Source of the DNA: a virus
DNA: 17,382 bases
Reading direction: 5' to 3' (one strand)
Virus genome (UHGV): UHGV-0221571
Each line of letters starts with the position of its first letter. The first letter of the stretch is position 1. The position numbers and the translations under genes are program-made. The notes beneath the pieces are model-generated. The model was not told the origin of the DNA. It ran no database searches and saw only the letters and a program-made list of their open reading frames with translations. Below, piece by piece: positions 3,453 to 17,215 of the stretch.

Positions 3453-5060
3453 TTAATTTATCTTTTCAACATTTCCATGAATCAACAAGTCGTAGGCAAG
3501 AAATAGTTTCCTATACTGGGTTTTTAAATTGTCAACGTCGCATGTCTTGAATTGAACAAACGCTTCTTTTTTAACATAATCTTCAATCTCCTCTTTGGGG
3601 ATATTTTTTATGTTCTTAATGACTATAGACAATTCTTTGTACTTTTTGAACTTTGCATCCTTTATATCTTTGATGTTGGTGTAAATTTTATTTGCATTGA
3701 TTTTATCTAAGGTGATTTTATTGAGCAAGTCGTCTAGTTTTCCGTGGCGTTCAATGCGTTGATTTAGTTTTAACACATATTTAGCTGGCAAACTTAACTC
3801 TTTCAAATTACATGAGGTTATAGTTTTTGAAAATGGAAGTTGTAATGAGTTTACTGAACCTAATATGAAATCTATGGCTAATTTATTAGATATTTCATTT
3901 TTATTAAATAAGTAGTCTTCAAGATAATTTATTTCTTTAACTTGTGTGAATACATACTTTTTATCGCCTAGAGCAACAACTAAATTTTTTCCTTGTTTAA
4001 CACTTTCTTCAAGTCTGTCTAAGTCAGAAGGTGAAACCAATAGAGTATCTAAGTGCCCTTTTTCACCCTCATTAATGATAAGTGTTTTAATGGCTCTTTG
4101 ATACCTTAAAACATCATAAGGTGAGAGCCCTTCATCAACAGCACTGATCTCATCATAGATCTGTTTATAGTTATCTGTTTTAACAGATGTATATGTAATT
4201 TGTAGCTGTTGATCGGTAATCTGTTTTGGTACTACTTCCTGTTCATTCTCTTTATATTCAATCAAAATTATTCTTTCAGCTGATTTTCGACCATCTTCTC
4301 TAGGTAGTTGTGAGGAAAAATCAGAAAGAAGTTTCTTTACATTCCTGTCAGTTAAAGAATATCCAAGAAAAACTATTGGATTTTTAATCATGTTAGATAG
4401 TATCTTGGCACTAATGAGTATAGATTTGTTGTCATATTTTTCGTAATCATCTTTATTTATGATTATTGAGTGTGGATCCTTTATATCACCATGTATTTTG
4501 TATAACTCACTCCAGCCAATAGTATCTTCGAAAAAACCATTATTTCCAATATAGAGTTTTGGAGTTACATTTTGCTCTTGAAGTAAATTTTCTATGAAAG
4601 CATCATAATTTGTAGTGATGATTATCTTGGCCTTTTTTATTAATGTTTTAAATGATGCTAATTCATCAAGATTTACATCCTTTCTGATTGTGTTATTAGA
4701 AAATCTTTGGCATATGGCGTATTTAAATGGTGAAATATCTTCACTAAAAACCCTCTTGGCATCTAGTCCATTTAATTTTAATTTGCCAGTCCTAAACAAT
4801 AGATTGTAATCATTTTCAATTTTACTTGCTGCCTCTGTATAAATCTTATGATCGATATCATTATCACTGTTATTTTTATGTGATTCTTTTATTGTTAAAA
4901 GATAACTATAGAAATCATTTGTGGGATTTGTTATTTTCCAATACTCGTTTAATAGCTCTTCCCACGTTGGGTAGTTCTCTAAATATCTTTTTGAAATGCC
5001 TGAGCCAATAAAGACTATTGGGTAATTTTTGAATTCAAAATTTTTTTTTGACATATCCAT
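3453..5060 (-). CDS. SIR2-like (defense-type SIR2_2) NADase-domain protein with an uncharacterised ~270-aa C-terminal domain
   Basis: 535-aa ATG-initiated ORF with AAGG 5 nt upstream. Motifs GSGIS (res 19-23), TTNYD (149-153), KIHGD (188-192) and FLGYSLTD (231-238) match the conserved blocks of defense-associated SIR2 domains such as ThsA. Visibly AT-rich relative to its flanks. Same strand as, and directly downstream of, the repressor. Confidence 0.75.
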   Translation of the reverse strand: MDMSKKNFEFKNYPIVFIGSGISKRYLENYPTWEELLNEYWKITNPTNDFYSYLLTIKESHKNNSDNDIDHKIYTEAASKIENDYNLLFRTGKLKLNGLDAKRVFSEDISPFKYAICQRFSNNTIRKDVNLDELASFKTLIKKAKIIITTNYDAFIENLLQEQNVTPKLYIGNNGFFEDTIGWSELYKIHGDIKDPHSIIINKDDYEKYDNKSILISAKILSNMIKNPIVFLGYSLTDRNVKKLLSDFSSQLPREDGRKSAERIILIEYKENEQEVVPKQITDQQLQITYTSVKTDNYKQIYDEISAVDEGLSPYDVLRYQRAIKTLIINEGEKGHLDTLLVSPSDLDRLEESVKQGKNLVVALGDKKYVFTQVKEINYLEDYLFNKNEISNKLAIDFILGSVNSLQLPFSKTITSCNLKELSLPAKYVLKLNQRIERHGKLDDLLNKITLDKINANKIYTNIKDIKDAKFKKYKELSIVIKNIKNIPKEEIEDYVKKEAFVQFKTCDVDNLKTQYRKLFLAYDLLIHGNVEKIN

Positions 5061-5166: not shown

Positions 5167-5859
5167 CTACCCATGTTTTCTATATGTCTGTGGCATGCTC
5201 CCAATAACTTTCCCAAATATAAATACCCGATTCATTTCGTCTTTTTCGATCGGGTCCCACGGTGAGTAGCTCTTGTTATCAGAGATAACCAGCAGCTTAT
5301 CCTTCATCATTTGCAGGCGCTTTACATGGGCTGTGTCGTCGTACAGAAACGCATAGATACCATCACCGTCGAAAGATTTAACAGTGATATCAACGAACAG
5401 AAGATCACCTGGTTCGATCGTTCCTGACATGCTGTCACCGCGTACGTTAATGATGCGGATATTTTCTGCCTTCCTGCCATCGAACATGTGACGAGCATCG
5501 TCAAACGAGTACTCAACCGAGCGTAGGACTTCTACAAACTCACGGTTGATGACACCCGGCCCAGCACTGACTTCTATATCAAGAACGTCAATTTTGAAGT
5601 ATTTGGAATGGTTGACAGCAGGCTTCCCTGATTGTTGACCGTCATTTCTCATCGGGCCTATGCCTGATGAGAGCCACTCTGTTCGAACACCCAATGCATT
5701 AGCTATTTCAACAATTTTTGTTGAGCCGCGTGCGTTGCCGCTTGTCAGTCTCCAGATTGTGGGTTGAGCTACGCCAGACGCCTTTGCAAGAGCGCCTTGA
5801 GACATTCCAGATTGTTCCATCGCTAGGTTTAAGCGATCAGCAAGAGTTTCTTTTTTCAT
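5167..5859 (-). CDS. CI-like prophage repressor (HTH N-terminus, S24/LexA-like autocleavage C-terminus)
   Basis: HTH region ...MSQGALAKASGVAQPTIWRL... and C-terminal S24 motifs (VRGDSMSGTIEPGDLLFVD, ...HVKRLQ...). The track ORF starts at TTG 5895; I place the start at ATG 5859 (MKKETLADRL...), which sits right after a -10-like TATAAA, i.e. a near-leaderless arrangement like lambda pRM. Confidence 0.85.
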   Translation of the reverse strand: MKKETLADRLNLAMEQSGMSQGALAKASGVAQPTIWRLTSGNARGSTKIVEIANALGVRTEWLSSGIGPMRNDGQQSGKPAVNHSKYFKIDVLDIEVSAGPGVINREFVEVLRSVEYSFDDARHMFDGRKAENIRIINVRGDSMSGTIEPGDLLFVDITVKSFDGDGIYAFLYDDTAHVKRLQMMKDKLLVISDNKSYSPWDPIEKDEMNRVFIFGKVIGSMPQTYRKHG

Positions 5860-5865
5860 AAGTTT

Positions 5866-5965
5866 TAATTTATACGCTTGCGTATTGATGGTCAAAACAC
5901 GTTTTGCTATTGATTGGATTAATACGCATTGCTATTATCCATTCATTGCAATACCAATAGGAATT
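5866..5965. promoter_or_regulatory. OR-like divergent promoter/operator region (pRM-like leftward, pR-like rightward)
   Basis: Perfect palindrome ATACGC-tt-GCGTAT (5872-5885) lying between a minus-strand -35 TTGACC (5895-5890) and -10 TATAAA (5874-5869). Plus-strand -35 TTGATT (5910-5915), 17-bp spacer, -10 TATTAT (5933-5938). TTGCTATT(G) copies at 5904-5912 and 5929-5936, 25 bp apart, overlap these elements. ATACGC half-site again at 5922-5927. Confidence 0.5.
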
Positions 5966-9264: not shown

Positions 9265-10296
9265 ATGTCCTCGAATATTTTATCTGGTGAAAAAGTAATC
9301 AATAAAATTGCTGAAAAGTTGAGCGATTATAAATATCCTCCGGCTGAAGGTATGAACTCTGAACATGTCAGCAAATGGATTAAGCAATTTGCAGTGGAGG
9401 ATAGACGATTTATCTTAGATGAAACGCTTTATCTACTTAATGCAGGTTACCTATCCGAAAGTCAATATCAACGAAAAATAAAAGCCATTGCAAGAAGTGA
9501 AAAGAACGCGAAATTCTTCAGATATGCAGGTTTTTTAGATATTCAAAAAAAAGGTTCTAGTCAGAAGGAATTGCTTAAATCTCTTTATGAAACAGTAGGG
9601 ATCAAATTTAACATCGTTACTGAATCATCAACTCAAGATGAAGTAAATAAATTTGATACATTTGTATATATTGATGATGTGTCGTTTTCAGGAGAAAAGG
9701 CCATCAAATCGATAAGTAATTTTGTTTTAAAATTTAATTTAAGAGATATTAAATTCAATGTATATTTTTTTTCATCTCATACGTTATCTGACTATAATAT
9801 AAAAAGACGATTAGAATATATTTTTAAGGATAGAAACATTTTTGTACACGTGAAGAATGGTGGTATGCGTGAGGTTGAAAACCGAAAAAGTCGTTCTGCT
9901 CAATCAGGTGTTTTCTGGCCAAGGAAATATAGTGTAGATACTCCCGAGAAATTCGAGGAGTGTGAGCTTTACAAAGGCGTATTCAGAGATGGATATGCCT
10001 CTTCTGATAGTTTTAGAAATGAAGCCTCAAGGGATCGTTTCGAATCTATCCTTACTAAAGTCGGCTTTAATATCTTGCTGCACAGGAAAACCCCTAGTGA
10101 GGTGCTCAAACCTCTAGGTTTTTCTACTTTTGACGGTTTGGGTTTTGGGGGAACAACATTTACTTATCGAAATTGCCCGAATAATGTGCCGCTGGCTTTT
10201 TGGTGGGGAGATTATGAACCAACAGGTGCTCCCGCATTGGACTGCTGGTATCCACTAATGAAGCGGAATGGGTATAATGAGTGGTATGAGCTATAG
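9265..10296 (+). CDS. Hypothetical 343-aa protein, AT-rich cargo gene; possible PRTase-type nucleotide-binding motif
   Basis: ATG 9265 with AAGGAA upstream in an AT-rich intergenic region. The stretch TFVYIDDVSFSGEK (res 132-145) resembles the PRPP-binding signature of type I phosphoribosyltransferases. No other family recognised. Translationally coupled to the NADAR gene. Confidence 0.6.
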   Translation: MSSNILSGEKVINKIAEKLSDYKYPPAEGMNSEHVSKWIKQFAVEDRRFILDETLYLLNAGYLSESQYQRKIKAIARSEKNAKFFRYAGFLDIQKKGSSQKELLKSLYETVGIKFNIVTESSTQDEVNKFDTFVYIDDVSFSGEKAIKSISNFVLKFNLRDIKFNVYFFSSHTLSDYNIKRRLEYIFKDRNIFVHVKNGGMREVENRKSRSAQSGVFWPRKYSVDTPEKFEECELYKGVFRDGYASSDSFRNEASRDRFESILTKVGFNILLHRKTPSEVLKPLGFSTFDGLGFGGTTFTYRNCPNNVPLAFWWGDYEPTGAPALDCWYPLMKRNGYNEWYEL

Positions 10297-10897
10297 ATTA
10301 TATCCGCTACAGAACACAGTTTCCTTCAGGAAAACCACCGAAAAATGGGGGGGGCTTTCCAACATGGCTAAAGGATATCCATTGTTAATCAATGGGTTGC
10401 CTATTCAATCAAGTGAAATCCTTTACCAAGCATGCCGATATCCAGACTATCCGGATATACAAAAGGCCATCATTACTCAAGGAAACCCCTATGAAGCCAA
10501 GCAGACCGCAAGATCGTTTGAATCCAAAACTCGCGCAGGATGGGATAAGAATCGAGTTTCGATTATGAAGTGGTGTGTATGCGTAAAATTATGCCAGAAC
10601 TGGGATACGTTCTTTGCGCTGTTAGACAGTACAGGCGACCATTTCATCGTGGAACACTCAGAGAAGGACCAATTCTGGGGTGCCAGTAAAGACCCAGAAG
10701 GTAACTATTATGGTATGAACGTATTAGGGCGAATTCTCATGGACGTGAGAGGGGTTGCTAGGAAAAAGGGGGCTGATGGGTTTGCAACAATACCATCGCT
10801 ATCTTTGGACAAATTTTTTCTCCTAGGCGAAAGAATTAAAGATGTAACATTTGTAGAGCCAACGCCTGGAGCAGGGCAAAGTTTATCCTTGTTTTAG
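10268..10897 (+). CDS. NADAR-domain (YbiA-like) protein
   Basis: Matches to the NADAR/YbiA blocks: GGLSNMA, INGLPIQSSEILYQACRY, AGWDKNRVSIMKWCVCVKLCQNWDTFFALLDSTGDHFIVEHSEKDQFWGA...GNYYGMNVLGRILMDVR. Start uncertain (ATG 10268, 10277 or 10286); all overlap the upstream gene. Confidence 0.8.
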   Translation: MGIMSGMSYRLYPLQNTVSFRKTTEKWGGLSNMAKGYPLLINGLPIQSSEILYQACRYPDYPDIQKAIITQGNPYEAKQTARSFESKTRAGWDKNRVSIMKWCVCVKLCQNWDTFFALLDSTGDHFIVEHSEKDQFWGASKDPEGNYYGMNVLGRILMDVRGVARKKGADGFATIPSLSLDKFFLLGERIKDVTFVEPTPGAGQSLSLF

Positions 10898-12562: not shown

Positions 12563-12647
12563 AGTCAGAGATAACAATCAACTAATACTGTTTTATTGAT
12601 TTTTGCTTGTAATTGGCGTTCTGGTCTGATTTTTGTGGAGTAAGTTG

Positions 12648-13031
12648 ATGCGTGATATTCAGATGGTTCTTGAGCGTTGGGGAGCGTGGGCGGCTAATAA
12701 TCATGAAGATGTGACCTGGTCGTCCATTGCCGCCGGTTTTAAGGGATTAATTACTTCAAAAGTAAAATCTCGCCCGCAATGTTGTGACGATGACGCGATG
12801 ATTATTTGCGGGTGCATGGCCCGTCTGAAAAAGAACAACAGCGATTTGCACGATTTATTAGTAGATTATTATGTAGTCGGTATGACATTCATGTCACTGG
12901 CAGGTAAGCATTGCTGCTCTGATGGTTATATCGGGAAAAGGTTACAGAAGGCTGAGGGTATAATTGAAGGGATGTTAATGGCATTAGATATCCGGTTAGA
13001 GATGGATATCGTTGTTAATAACTCTAATTAA
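12648..13031 (+). CDS. quuD: Late-gene antiterminator Q (82/DLP12 QuuD type)
   Basis: ATG 12648 with GGAG 7 nt upstream. [62 protein letters not shown]..., Cys-rich as in Q proteins. Position after rusA/ylcG. Confidence 0.8.
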
Positions 13032-13219: not shown

Positions 13220-14302
13220 TTAGAACTGGTAAACCATACCTACAGCAACGATATCATCGGTAGCAACGCCAGATGCTTTCGTGAAATCGCTCTTATCAAT
13301 CAGGTTGATTTTGTAGTCAACAAAAGTGGACATATTTTTGTTGAAGTAATAGGTTGCACCTACATCAACATATTCAACCAGGTCCTGATCACCCCAAACA
13401 CCCAAGTCTTTTCCTTTAGAATGCAGGTAAGCAACGGATGGACGCAGGCCGAAGTCGAACTGATATTGTGCAACAGCTTCGAAGTTTTGTGCTTTGTTGG
13501 CAATATGGTTATTACCAAAAACAGTCATGTTCTGGGTTTCAGAATAGGTGGTGGCCAGATAGATGTTGTTCGCATCATATTTCAGACCAGCTGCCCATAC
13601 TTCAGCATTTTGACCAGAAGCATTCAGACCGTTGTTACCGTAGATAACCTGATTATTAGTGCGATCAGATTTAGCATAGGTTGCACCCACGCCGAATCCT
13701 TCATACTCATAAGTAGTTGAGAAACCGAAACCATCGCCATTAGCTTCAGTTACTTCATTTCGGTCATTTTTGCCCTGATACTGAGCTGCAAAGTTCAGGC
13801 CATCAACCAGACCAAAGAAGTCGTTGTTACGATAAGTTGCAACACCTGTGGTGCGACCAGTCATGAATACATCTGTTTGGGTCCAGGTATCGCCACCGAA
13901 TTCTGGCAGAACGTCAGTCCACGCACCGATGTCGTATGCTACACCGTAGTTACGGCCGTAATCGATTGAGCCGTAGTCACCGAATTTCAGGCCTGCAAAT
14001 GCAAGACGGGTTTTGTCTTTGGAGGAACCTTGAGATTCAGCGCGGTTGCCTTTGAATTCATATTCCCACTGACCGAAACCAGTCAGTTGATCGTTGATTT
14101 GGGTTTCACCTTTGAAGCCAAGACGGGCATAAGTAGTATCACCATCATCTGCATCATTAGAGGAGAAGTAGTGCTTAGCATTAACTTTCCCGTACAGATC
14201 CAGCTTGTTACTGTCTTTATTATAAATTTCAGCTGCCTGAGCAGACATCGCCATCAGTACTGATGCAGCTACAGCAGAAATTGCCACTGTTAATTTTTTC
14301 AT
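13220..14302 (-). CDS. nmpC: Outer-membrane general porin (OmpC/OmpF/PhoE family), prophage NmpC/Lc-type
   Basis: 360-aa product with signal peptide [23 protein letters not shown]|AEIYNK and C-terminal ...VAVGMVYQF ending in Phe. Typical porin sequence throughout. Sits between Q and the lysis genes as in DLP12. Confidence 0.9.
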
Positions 14303-15711: not shown

Positions 15712-16087
15712 GCTGGTTATTTCTGCTTTCCTCCTGACTTTATTCGGTTCTCTCGTCTGGTCAGCTAACCACTACCACAGCAAATACCAGCGCGAAAAGA
15801 AACGTGCTGATGAGGCTGTACAAAATGCCGAATCGGCAACCGCTATTACCAATAACGTCCTGCAATCACTGCAAATCGTCAATACAGTTCTGGAGGCTAA
15901 CCAGCATGCAAAACAGCAGATCGCACTGGAGTCACAGAGAACCCAGGCTGATATCAAAGTGGCTGTTGCGGATGATGATTGTGCTGTACGCCCTGTGCCT
16001 GCTGCCGCTGCTGACCGGTTGCGAAAGTTCGCGGACAGTTTACGTGCCAGTTCCGGCTATACCGTTACCGGCGAGTCTGACCGCTGA
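15695..16087 (+). CDS. Rz: Rz-like inner-membrane spanin (i-spanin)
   Basis: From ATG 15695: MKLRYKLVISAFLLTLFGSLVWSANHYHSKYQ..., an N-terminal TM anchor followed by a charged helical region. Overlaps the end of R. The track ORF starts 33 nt earlier. Confidence 0.65.
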   Translation: MKLRYKLVISAFLLTLFGSLVWSANHYHSKYQREKKRADEAVQNAESATAITNNVLQSLQIVNTVLEANQHAKQQIALESQRTQADIKVAVADDDCAVRPVPAAAADRLRKFADSLRASSGYTVTGESDR

Positions 16088-16247
16088 AACCCCGCAACCA
16101 GCCATTTCTGAACCGCTGACTTATGCGGGTAGCCTAGATTTGAATGTCAGTCTGTTGTCGGCGCTAGGGCAGTGCAATCTGGATAAAGCGGGGATCAGAA
16201 GGATAGAGGCGAGCCGGTCAGGTAGAAGTGAATCAGGCTCAAAGTGA
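15972..16247 (+). CDS. Rz1: Rz1-like outer-membrane lipoprotein spanin (o-spanin), +1 frame relative to Rz
   Basis: MMIVLYALCLLPLLTGC... signal with lipobox LLTG|C, followed by a Pro-rich mature region (VPVPAIPLPASLTAETPQP). Begins inside Rz and extends about 160 nt past its stop. Confidence 0.55.
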   Translation: MMIVLYALCLLPLLTGCESSRTVYVPVPAIPLPASLTAETPQPAISEPLTYAGSLDLNVSLLSALGQCNLDKAGIRRIEASRSGRSESGSK

Positions 16248-16317
16248 AGCGGAAAAGGTCTTCGGCATAAGGTGACGTAGTAATAATTACAGTCAACTGA
16301 CTTTTGGAACGAAGCAT
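16195..16317 (-). CDS. Candidate 40-codon ORF with a consensus Shine-Dalgarno, downstream of the T7/SP6-like promoter pair
   Basis: Minus strand: TTAAGGAGGTTCAAC-ATG (AGGAGG, 6-nt spacer). Product MLRSKSQLTVIITTSPYAEDLFRFTLSLIHFYLTGSPLSF, stop at 16197-16195. Antisense to the 3' end of Rz1. Below the ORF-track cut-off. Confidence 0.3.
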   Translation of the reverse strand: MLRSKSQLTVIITTSPYAEDLFRFTLSLIHFYLTGSPLSF

Positions 16318-16360
16318 GTTGAACCTCCTTAATTGATGTTATTTGAGTGAGGAAGGCATT

Positions 16361-16443
16361 CTGTCCTTCTAAAGTGTCACCTAAATCAAGTAGGCAACTC
16401 GTCCAACGCGTTGGACATGCCTCCCCATTAGTGAGTCGTATTG
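16361..16443 (-). promoter_or_regulatory. Tandem T7-like and SP6-like single-subunit phage RNA polymerase promoter sequences flanking a 16-bp palindrome
   Basis: Minus strand 5'-cAATACGACTCACTAATGGGGAGG (plus 16443-16421) against T7 TAATACGACTCACTATAGGGAGA: 14 contiguous identities at -16..-3. Minus strand 5'-ATTTAGGTGACACTTTAGAAGG (plus 16386-16365) against SP6 ATTTAGGTGACACTATAGAAG: one mismatch. Palindrome GTCCAACGCGTTGGAC (16401-16416) between them. Confidence 0.5.
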
Positions 16444-16583
16444 ATTGCGACTCTTCAAAGAATTCATTACTGGAGATATGAAAATGGTTTCACTACGTAT
16501 GGAGGAGGCTGTGTTTATCAGTCCCGCAGGTATTCAATGGGTGCCTGCAATAATGTTTGTGGCGGTAAACGTGTCGTGATGGG

Positions 16584-16617
16584 ATTTTGGTGTCTCGAAA
16601 GCAAAGGAGACACCAAA
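16584..16617 (+). promoter_or_regulatory. Perfect 12-bp inverted repeat enclosing the RBS of the downstream small gene
   Basis: TTTTGGTGTCTC (16584-16595) - gaaagcaaag - GAGACACCAAAA (16606-16617). The SD AAGGAG (16601-16606) lies in the loop/right-arm junction, and the ATG (16618) immediately follows the right arm. Confidence 0.45.
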
Positions 16618-16812
16618 ATGAACTATTCAAACATTATCTGCCCAACCAACCGTCTGCAGGTGACCATTCTGCATGAAAAAGATGTGCTGACTGGTATCGG
16701 TGATGCCATCGGCGAATTGCACACATACCAATGTTCACGGGAGCACGTGTGCAGCTATAGAGAAACGACGGAATGTATTGTAAGAAAGCGGGAGATTCTT
16801 CAAAACAGGTAA
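16618..16812 (+). CDS. Small Cys-containing hypothetical protein (64 aa)
   Basis: ATG 16618 with AAGGAG 11 nt upstream. MNYSNIICPTNRLQVTILHEKDVLTGIGDAIGELHTYQCSREHVCSYRETTECIVRKREILQNR. Followed by a hairpin terminator. The longer track ORF (16441 onward) starts at TTG with no RBS. Confidence 0.5.
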   Translation: MNYSNIICPTNRLQVTILHEKDVLTGIGDAIGELHTYQCSREHVCSYRETTECIVRKREILQNR

Positions 16813-16822
16813 GAACAATCAA

Positions 16823-16852
16823 AGCCATCGGTTATCAACCGGTGGCTTTTTC
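16823..16852 (+). terminator. Intrinsic terminator after the small gene
   Basis: Stem AGCCATCGG / CCGGTGGCT (one G-U pair), 7-nt loop, then TTTTT. Confidence 0.5.
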
Positions 16853-16864
16853 ATTGGAGTAGAT

Positions 16865-17215
16865 ATGCCGCCACGAACACCAAAAGCCTGCCGCGTTCGC
16901 GGTTGCCGCAATACCACTACTGACCCGTCAGGCTATTGCGAAAGCCATAAAAGCGAAGGCTGGAAGCAATACAAGCCAGGACAATCTCGTCATCAGCGCG
17001 GTTATGGTTCGAAGTGGGATGTTATCCGCGTGCGTGTCCTGAAGCGTGACAAAGGCCTGTGTCAGCTATGTCTGCGTGCTGGTGTGGCGCGTGAAGCGAA
17101 AACCGTTGATCACATCATCCCTAAAGCACATGGCGGCACTGATGCCGACAGTAATCTGCAGAGTCTGTGCTGGCCGTGTCATAAGGCGAAGACGGCCCGT
17201 GAACGGCTTAAGTGA
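16865..17215 (+). CDS. HNH homing-type endonuclease (terminase-associated HNH of cos-packaging phages)
   Basis: 116-aa product with an N-terminal Cys cluster (CRVRGC...C) and HNH core VDHIIPKAHGGTDADSNLQSLCWPCHKAKT. GGAG 6 nt upstream. Lies immediately before a terminase-like start. Confidence 0.85.
   Translation: MPPRTPKACRVRGCRNTTTDPSGYCESHKSEGWKQYKPGQSRHQRGYGSKWDVIRVRVLKRDKGLCQLCLRAGVAREAKTVDHIIPKAHGGTDADSNLQSLCWPCHKAKTARERLK

Follow-up and report, generated by a model that had tools for sequence, protein, structure and literature searches.

Tandem promoters of two foreign phage subfamilies precede a small open reading frame in an SfIV/SfV-like prophage and may form an infection-triggered cassette

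Between the lysis and packaging modules of the prophage represented by the UHGV virus genome UHGV-0221571 lies a small cassette, which we describe here from a 17,382-nucleotide (nt) stretch of that genome (hereafter the window, meaning the whole stretch analysed). Read in its own direction, on the minus strand, the cassette consists of a T7-like promoter box, a palindrome, an SP6-like promoter box, a Shine-Dalgarno sequence, and an open reading frame (ORF) of 40 codons, called ORF40 in the following. The features of the locus are listed below, all cassette coordinates being those of the minus strand of the window.

Positions 16421 to 16443, minus strand: predicted Studiervirinae promoter (Berlinvirus-type, T7-like), CAATACGACTCACTAATGGGGAG, spanning -17 to +6, with its predicted start at G16426.
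Positions 16388 to 16426, minus strand: predicted 5′-terminal stem-loop of the first-promoter transcript, topped by the 16-base-pair (bp) palindrome GTCCAACGCGTTGGAC (16401-16416).
Positions 16364 to 16386, minus strand: predicted Molineuxvirinae promoter (SP6/Zindervirus-type), ATTTAGGTGACACTTTAGAAGGA, spanning -17 to +6, with its predicted start at G16369.
Positions 16352 to 16369, minus strand: short 5′ hairpin, GAAGG...CCTTC, predicted by folding at the start of the second transcript.
Positions 16324 to 16330, minus strand: Shine-Dalgarno sequence AAGGAGG, 6 nt before the ATG.
Positions 16195 to 16317, minus strand: ORF40 (MLRSKSQLTVIITTSPYAEDLFRFTLSLIHFYLTGSPLSF), 40 codons from ATG 16317, its last 17 codons overlapping the 3′ end of lysC on the opposite strand.
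Positions 15972 to 16247, plus strand: lysC (Rz1-like o-spanin), by RefSeq annotation of identical DNA; the cassette has its fixed docking point at the 3′ end of this gene.
Positions 16865 to 17215, plus strand: HNH endonuclease gene, the first gene of the packaging module, divergent from the cassette, by RefSeq annotation.

An earlier sequence-only reading of this DNA had described the first box as identical to the T7 class III promoter over 14 contiguous positions (-16 to -3), with a few off-consensus bases as departures from T7. The identity holds, but the departures have a different meaning. Over the whole 23-bp class III consensus TAATACGACTCACTATAGGGAGA (-17 to +6), the box has six mismatches (-17, -2, -1, +4, +5, and +6), and a search of the window for the T7 class III 23-mer with up to three mismatches returned no match, so that the class III consensus of T7 itself (Teseptimavirus) is absent from it. 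On a matrix built from the 17 promoter sites annotated in the T7 record, the first box scores 26.2 bits, level with the weakest of T7's own promoters, whereas on the matrix of the Berlinvirus PhiV-1 it scores 33.1 bits and would rank sixth among the 15 promoters of that phage. The AT in place of TA at -2/-1 is the Berlinvirus consensus, because PhiV-1 promoters read TAATACGACTCACTAATGGGAGA (about 15 sites in the genome), a consensus with which the first box agrees. Flanks included, the box shares 27 of 28 positions with the PhiV-1 promoter upstream of the gene annotated as gp17 (tail fiber), and sites matching it carry a promoter annotation in the related records FE44 and Yepe2. By its bases, therefore, the first box is a Berlinvirus-type promoter rather than a T7 class III promoter or a degenerate version of one. 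Since positions -16 to -3 are identical to T7, some initiation by T7 RNA polymerase would also be plausible. The first box is kept in all copies of the cassette; its variable positions are -11, -6, -3, and those of the initiation region, which has one additional G in some copies.

The second box had been read as an SP6 promoter with a single mismatch, which we also find: the core match ATTTAGGTGACACTTTAGAAG (16386-16366) differs from the consensus ATTTAGGTGACACTATAGAAG only by a T for A at -3 (position 16372). This SP6-type site is unique within the window, where none is expected by chance (200 shuffles), and it scores 31.8 bits on the SP6 matrix, fourth among SP6's 12 promoters, as a Zindervirus promoter would. 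In most E. coli copies of the cassette the second box is replaced by ATTTACTGGACACTATAGAAGGA, the exact promoter of K1E and K1-5, which is identical to the K1E promoters at 13925 and 24431 and occurs six to nine times in every Vectrevirus genome; this common E. coli variant reaches 36.7 bits on the K1E matrix. A K1E-type string, TATTTACTGGACACTATAGGAGGA, appears in Table 2 of PMC13029058 as a promoter used by a polymerase in vitro. Klebsiella prophages have, in place of the SP6-type box, the Kp7-type promoter found in Klebsiella SP6-like phages. The variation of the second box is confined to -12 to -9, which are the positions that distinguish the SP6, K1E, and Kp7 promoters.

Both boxes score within the range of the phages' own promoters. 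When the T7, PhiV-1, K1E, and SP6 matrices were scanned over both strands of about 1.0 Mb of prophage DNA at a cut-off of at least 20 bits, all matches belonged to the cassette, leaving zero background. This, together with the absence of SP6-type sites from the shuffled sequences, supports the earlier view that two near-consensus promoters do not stand side by side by chance. The distance between them, previously put at about 27 nt, is 33 nt from the end of the 24-nt T7-type string (16420) to the start of the SP6-type box (16386), and the two predicted start sites are 57 nt apart. We also scanned viral contigs with a loose SP6-type pattern and discarded the result, since most matches fell on a coding motif (DLGDTLGE) of unrelated phages. 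In environmental phage contigs (IMG/VR metagenome, L192-L286 in our set), likewise unrelated, one repeatedly meets strings such as GATTTAGGTGACACTTTAGGAGAA. Loose scans of this kind yield false positives because such strings encode the conserved DLGDTLGE, and these matches are a warning against promoter calls made from pattern alone.

The perfect palindrome noted earlier between the boxes is present at 16416-16401 and forms the top of a stem-loop at the 5′ terminus of the predicted first-promoter transcript. The stem, 13-15 bp long, begins at +1 (RNAfold), and the stem-loop has a predicted free energy of -15.1 kcal/mol in the window and of -13 to -24 kcal/mol in other variants. Across 10 variants, 96% of the pair cells are paired, versus 41-55% with slid partners, and compensatory double changes are found at three stem pairs. 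The wobbles are G-U on the strand transcribed from the cassette promoters, which argues for a hairpin in RNA.

Palindromes of the same family are repeated in SP6-like phages, with nine copies in SP6 (GTC(C/T)AAC-NN-GTTGGAC) at places syntenic with the eight of K1E (GTCTCAC-NN-GTGAGAC), and seven in the Klebsiella phage Kp7 (GTCCAAC-NN-GTTGGAC); several of these copies lie 2-15 nt upstream of a phage promoter. Within SP6-like phages the palindrome is lineage-specific, and its syntenic copies often stand directly before promoters or after genes (L047 for K1E, L120 for SP6, and L173 for Kp7). Most SP6 copies show a T-G asymmetry on the coding strand, which suggests that in these phages it is an RNA hairpin that may act as a terminator, a processing site, or a stabiliser. 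A literature search found no paper containing the palindrome strings of SP6-like phages.

In the cassettes, palindrome and second promoter tend to come from the same phage lineage. The window and Shigella phage SfIV pair an SP6-type promoter with an SP6-type palindrome, the O157-type cassette pairs a K1E-type promoter with the palindrome GTCTCACACGTGAGAC, identical to that at K1E 10750, and Klebsiella prophages pair a Kp7-type promoter with the matching palindrome; in some other E. coli variants, the palindrome beside a K1E-type promoter is SP6/Kp7-like. The spacing between palindrome and promoter is 14 nt in E. coli-type cassettes versus 15 nt at SP6 14255 and K1E 15901, and 3-4 nt in Klebsiella cassettes, as at Kp7 5870.

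Downstream of the second promoter, the Shine-Dalgarno sequence AAGGAGG, the 6-nt spacer, ATG 16317, and the 40-codon frame to 16195 are all as the sequence-only reading had them. The Shine-Dalgarno sequence is kept in all intact copies bar single-base variants (AAGGAAG in L008), and the whole stretch from promoter to ATG, comprising the untranslated region (UTR), the Shine-Dalgarno sequence, and the ATG, is nearly invariant; copies differ by about 15% overall. ORF40 is intact, with 40 codons, in about 100 copies, the exceptions being a copy disrupted by an insertion sequence and decayed duplicates, which are the only copies without the Shine-Dalgarno sequence and ATG. In L002 (2740-3000), the cassette has been duplicated in tandem, with a remnant of the HNH 5′ end attached; in the extra copy, both promoter boxes are degraded but kept and the Shine-Dalgarno sequence, ATG, and ORF are lost. 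A comparable second copy occurs in L046.

The two halves of ORF40 vary differently, as 12 of 20 residues of the N-terminal half differ between the main alleles, and the C-terminal 20 residues are invariant in E. coli. We considered whether the latter could be a by-product of the overlap with lysC. At the variable sites in this overlap, the changes are 15 synonymous and 9 non-synonymous in the ORF40 frame versus 5 and 19 in the lysC frame; therefore, ORF40 is the frame under purifying selection, and the by-product explanation is rejected by this codon-position test. AlphaFold2 predicts a single helix over residues 3-34 (mean predicted local distance difference test score 79.5, from a shallow alignment). 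ORF40 and seven related peptides had no family match in Pfam, PHROGs, NCBIfam, or PADLOC, the E. coli RefSeq records inspected carry no annotation at the position of ORF40, and an Rfam search of 15900-17000 gave no match at E ≤1. Homologues of ORF40 were found only in E. coli and Shigella. The homologue search found none in Autographiviridae, and therefore the ORF was not captured along with the promoters.

The E. coli-type cassette occurs in 632 of 5,426 complete E. coli genomes (about 12%), almost always as a single chromosomal copy, and its carriers include O157:H7 and ST131. Wild E. coli from baboon, chicken, swan, deer, wastewater, and humans carry a 201-nt stretch around the boxes with 100% identity. 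SfIV and several induced E. coli siphoviruses also have the cassette, as do about 100 prophage contigs from IMG/VR. The segment is thus conserved in natural isolates and other prophages, a point that the sequence-only reading had proposed to check. A scan of one genome per species with a 20-nt string from the UTR returned just three matches, attributed to chance, in unrelated metagenome-assembled genomes.

A wider family was reached through a tblastn match to the C-terminal half of ORF40. Temperate phages of Klebsiella carry an analogous cassette in the same slot, antisense to the end of lysC, with the order hairpin, T7-like promoter ATTAAGACTCACTAT(T)AGGAAGG, palindrome GTCCAACACGTTGGAC, box (C/T)AATAGTGGCGAGTATAGAAC, Shine-Dalgarno sequence, and ORF. 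The box (C/T)AATAGTGGCGAGTATAGAAC is the promoter of Klebsiella Molineuxvirinae, and Kp7 has 12 promoters reading TAATAGTGGCGAGTATAGAAG. These cassettes have a strong Shine-Dalgarno sequence and an ORF of 36-39 codons, of which there are at least six classes. Across the family the payload is always an ORF of 36-44 codons in at least eight sequence classes, including two E. coli alleles, and the ORFs that dock on lysC, those of Klebsiella included, all end at the same TAA in ...TTCTAATCCCCGCC. Most payload versions are strongly hydrophobic; in four classes, of the Klebsiella type, the best 17-residue Kyte-Doolittle mean is 2.1-2.45, within the range of type I toxins. Further variants in other prophages have an exact SP6 promoter and different boxes. 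Among the same 5,426 E. coli genomes, the Klebsiella type is found in only 5 against 632 for the E. coli type; therefore, promoter specificity tracks the phages of the host. Variation between copies, which is unevenly distributed along the cassette, is the strongest evidence that we have.

The long UTR of Klebsiella-type cassettes contains the additional conserved boxes TTTAATGTTACACGAGTAGGAAC and AAGTTACACAATAGAA (L167, 1020-1110), and boxes such as GAATTAGTGGCTACTCCTGAAGG occur in the cassette region of other prophages (L268 and L228). These extra boxes may be promoters for other phage polymerases, in which case three or four sensors would stand in a row.

The element that hosts the cassette is an SfIV/SfV-like prophage at tRNA-Thr/proA, with an HK97-type head, a P27-family small terminase, an HNH endonuclease, and a contractile tail. 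The prophage spans more than 31 kb of the locus, and the integrase lies about 14 kb from the cassette, on the side to which the promoters point. Directly upstream of the cassette, and always divergent from it in E. coli-type loci, lies the HNH gene, as seen in all such loci that were annotated or inspected for ORFs; a pattern-based neighbour tally missed variant HNH N-termini. Downstream, the cassette is followed by the end of lysC (as in the window), by iss/bor on the same strand, or by other inserted genes. In 63 of about 98 sampled loci, iss/bor begins about 180 nt downstream of ORF40, and a read-through transcript would include it because it lies downstream on the same strand. This serum resistance gene is downstream in most E. 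coli copies, including those of O157:H7 and ST131 EC958 (L005 3447-3740, L006, and L008). The suggestion that the payload is antisense transcription through Rz1/Rz/R is therefore not upheld, as the conserved payload is the small ORF and iss/bor or other genes intervene in most E. coli copies.

A scan for sigma-70 promoters over 16000-16900 predicted none on either strand, and the only terminator-like hairpin in that interval is on the plus strand (16526-16548). Searches by tblastn with four phage polymerases found no single-subunit polymerase in the window or in a whole related prophage. In our best reading, the cassette is a natural expression unit, a prophage moron whose only predicted promoters are those of other phages. 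The sequence-only reading had left two alternatives, a prophage trap driven by the polymerase of superinfecting T7-like or SP6-like podoviruses, and engineered or vector-derived DNA, and the comparative evidence favours the first. As judged from sequence comparison, the evidence that the cassette has a function is strong.

We propose the following course of events. In an uninfected lysogen, the cassette would be silent, as it lacks a predicted sigma-70 promoter and the prophage has no gene for a single-subunit polymerase. T7-like phages make their polymerase early, and it stays active after host polymerase has been shut off. When a T7-like or SP6-like phage infects, this polymerase, made early, would read the cassette, which would lead to bulk production of the small helical protein. 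The likeliest effect would be membrane damage or premature lysis that aborts the infection and thereby protects sister lysogens and, with them, the prophage. An invader could escape only through a genome-wide change in the promoter specificity of its polymerase. That the cassette is read by invading polymerases seems to us likely; the whole scenario, an expression cassette triggered by the invader's polymerase and probably serving abortive infection, we regard as probable with less assurance. Two other defence-type morons of the same prophage count for this proposal, a gene for a SIR2_2-domain protein of 535 amino acids (3453-5060, minus strand), which adjoins a cI-type repressor gene (5167-5895), and a PRTase-CE plus NADAR gene pair (9265-10897, plus strand) after the replication genes.

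Several points weigh against the trap proposal. Regarding the promoters, (i) the PhiV-1, K1E, SP6, and Kp7 promoter sets behind the scores are pattern scans of genomes rather than mapped transcription start sites; (ii) some common E. coli variants have A at -11 and G at -6, which lowers the first box to 23.9 bits, below PhiV-1's own range; and (iii) the T at -3 of the second box is seen in none of SP6's 12 promoters. Regarding the payload, ORF40 is only moderately hydrophobic, the least so of its family (best 17-residue Kyte-Doolittle mean 1.05), the variability of its N-terminal half fits either weak constraint or diversifying selection, and the small ORF may not be the sole payload, because iss/bor lies downstream in about two thirds of loci. 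What we show are the sequences, their agreement with authentic phage promoters and hairpins, the specificity switches that follow the host, the maintained hairpin, and the coding selection on the ORF; transcription by an invading polymerase, toxicity of the peptide, and protection from infection are inferred.

One competing explanation, which we consider unlikely, is that the prophage borrows the polymerase of an invader for genes farther downstream, either iss/bor or an antisense RNA over its own lysis genes, so that the small ORF would be a mere leader. The frequent same-strand iss/bor fits this explanation, as does the established ability of phage polymerases to read through most host terminators, and helper-dependent expression was reportedly proposed for the islands of Chen & Schneider (2006). 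However, iss/bor is missing downstream of the cassette in the window, in SfIV, and in all Klebsiella cassettes, and the next genes lie on the opposite strand in other loci. Nothing but the Shine-Dalgarno sequence and the small ORF constantly accompanies the promoters, this ORF is under coding selection, and an outer-membrane lipoprotein produced once infection is underway would have no obvious use.

Nearly the same low credence goes to the view that the cassette is a functionless fossil, made of pieces of T7-like and SP6-like genomes captured by illegitimate recombination during co-infection. Its DNA does derive from SP6-like phages, because the unit of hairpin and promoter is a near copy of units in SP6, K1E, and Kp7, and decayed duplicates exist. 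An inert remnant would not be expected, however, to have promoters of two subfamilies always in tandem and in the same orientation before a consensus Shine-Dalgarno sequence and an ORF, in an arrangement that recurs with other specificities and other ORFs in E. coli, Klebsiella, and other prophages. The near-invariant UTR, the compensatory changes in the hairpin, and the purifying selection on the ORF also speak against it.

It is a good deal less probable still that the hairpin of the first-promoter transcript is an RNA decoy, titrating a phage or host factor that binds or cuts it, with the ORF incidental. While the palindrome is maintained by covariation and matches the phage lineage of the adjacent promoter in the window and SfIV, the O157-type, and the Klebsiella cassettes, only transcripts from the T7-type promoter would contain the hairpin, so that it would appear during infection by the group that does not own it; moreover, 5′-end hairpins are ordinary in T7-like transcripts, and the ORF is under coding selection. 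Finally, cloning-vector or engineered DNA, introduced by strain construction or assembly contamination, could be suspected from T7 and SP6 promoters less than 80 bp apart and from MluI and BstXI sites in the palindrome, but can be dismissed on both distribution and architecture, as identical or related segments occur in the 632 complete E. coli genomes, from many hosts (wild isolates among them) and countries, and in SfIV, the promoters stand in tandem on one strand instead of converging around a polylinker, the first box has Berlinvirus bases with six differences from the vector T7 consensus, and the palindrome is a natural hairpin of SP6-like phages whose restriction sites are incidental.

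We compare the proposed polymerase-triggered cassette with known systems. Chen & Schneider (2006) reportedly described tandem T7-group promoters in enterobacterial chromosomes without a cognate polymerase gene, to be read by the polymerase of an infecting T7-like phage. Their islands are said to be 4-13 kb long, with a tyrosine integrase upstream and terminal direct repeats of 17-24 bp, and to have been interpreted as satellites, the promoters being spread over 150-620 bp with two to five phage-like genes. The cassette resembles them in having two tandem T7-group promoters and no cognate polymerase, and it differs in being only about 0.25-0.4 kb long inside a full-size SfIV/SfV-like prophage, without the size of an island or an integrase directly upstream, and in having start sites 57 nt apart and a single 40-codon ORF on the end of lysC. 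Their description fits the longer cassettes of the Klebsiella type better. Some of their reported 12 clusters may be this cassette. Chromosomal tandem T7-like promoters without a polymerase are not a wholly new idea; the cassette itself is apparently undescribed.

The closest relatives of the parts are the native units of Autographiviridae (Berlinvirus PhiV-1, Zindervirus SP6, Vectrevirus K1E/K1-5, and Klebsiella Kp7), which have the same promoters, palindrome family, and 5′ stem-loops, with a spacing of 15 rather than 14 nt. There, these units occur together with the matching polymerase and drive phage genes, whereas the cassette joins the units of two subfamilies in a temperate phage without a polymerase. 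Its proposed logic is that of engineered phage-triggered suicide systems and T7-promoter kill switches, in which a harmful gene is silent until the invader supplies a transcription factor or polymerase; a phage-inducible promoter was reportedly fused to a lethal gene in Lactococcus by Djordjevic et al. (1997). Those systems are man-made, and the cassette is natural, widespread, and equipped with two tandem putative sensors.

As regards the product, type I toxins (Hok, TisB, Ibs, and Ldr) and lambda RexAB offer a likeness in the short, mostly hydrophobic peptide, predicted to be helical, and the presumed membrane damage that would abort infection. We found no sequence-family membership for the cassette peptides and no evident antisense-RNA antitoxin; control would lie instead in the lack of a usable promoter. 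Like the lambdoid bor/iss morons, the cassette is a self-contained unit in the slot between lysis and packaging genes, oriented against the late operon, but bor/iss are expressed in the lysogen from host-type promoters, and the cassette has foreign-phage promoters only.

Literature searches found no description of the cassette, its peptides, its promoter strings, or its palindromes, the only leads being Chen & Schneider 2006 and one table with a K1E-type promoter. We conclude that the cassette is a real, natural, and widespread element and apparently an undescribed variant of a kind of element that is rarely discussed. Whether it is also the first natural "promoter-trap" immune sensor, by which a prophage would sense infection through the invader's own RNA polymerase on decoy promoters and without a protein receptor, multiplexed for the two main T7-like subfamilies and re-tuned to the local phages by swaps of promoter-hairpin units, we judge to be evenly balanced.

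If the proposal is correct, this would be a defence that switches on exactly as the invader silences host transcription. A point mutation would not suffice for evasion, since the invader's polymerase has to go on recognising a dozen or more promoters in its own genome. Traps of this kind would select for changed specificity of phage polymerases and their promoter sets and could help to explain the diversification of T7-group polymerases into mutually exclusive promoter specificities, offering a testable selective force behind the long-noted co-diversification of polymerase and promoter. Because the cassette is common, it may also influence which hosts T7-like, SP6-like, and K1-specific phages can infect; these phages are popular candidates for phage therapy. 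Prophage gene catalogues, in addition, gain a previously unannotated family of proteins of 36-44 residues.

Some further features were observed around the cassette. A short hydrophobic ORF (MKMVSLRMEEAVFISPAGIQWVPAIMFVAVNVS; 16470-16579, plus strand), which has a GGAG Shine-Dalgarno sequence of its own, is divergent from the first promoter and contains the terminator-like hairpin (16526-16548); other copies have kept the start region of this ORF, which there extends into the start of the HNH gene. Beyond it, a 12-bp hairpin, TTTTGGTGTCTC...GAGACACCAAAA (16585-16618), buries the Shine-Dalgarno sequence and start codon of an ORF of 64 amino acids (16618-16812, plus strand), which belongs to phrog_31491, of unassigned function, and is hypothetical in RefSeq. 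This ORF is part of a block of about 360 nt inserted between the cassette and the HNH gene, which most other copies do not have. Farther away, an OmpC/NmpC-type porin gene (13220-14302, minus strand), oriented against the late operon, is inserted after the Q antiterminator (12633-13031) and before the holin.

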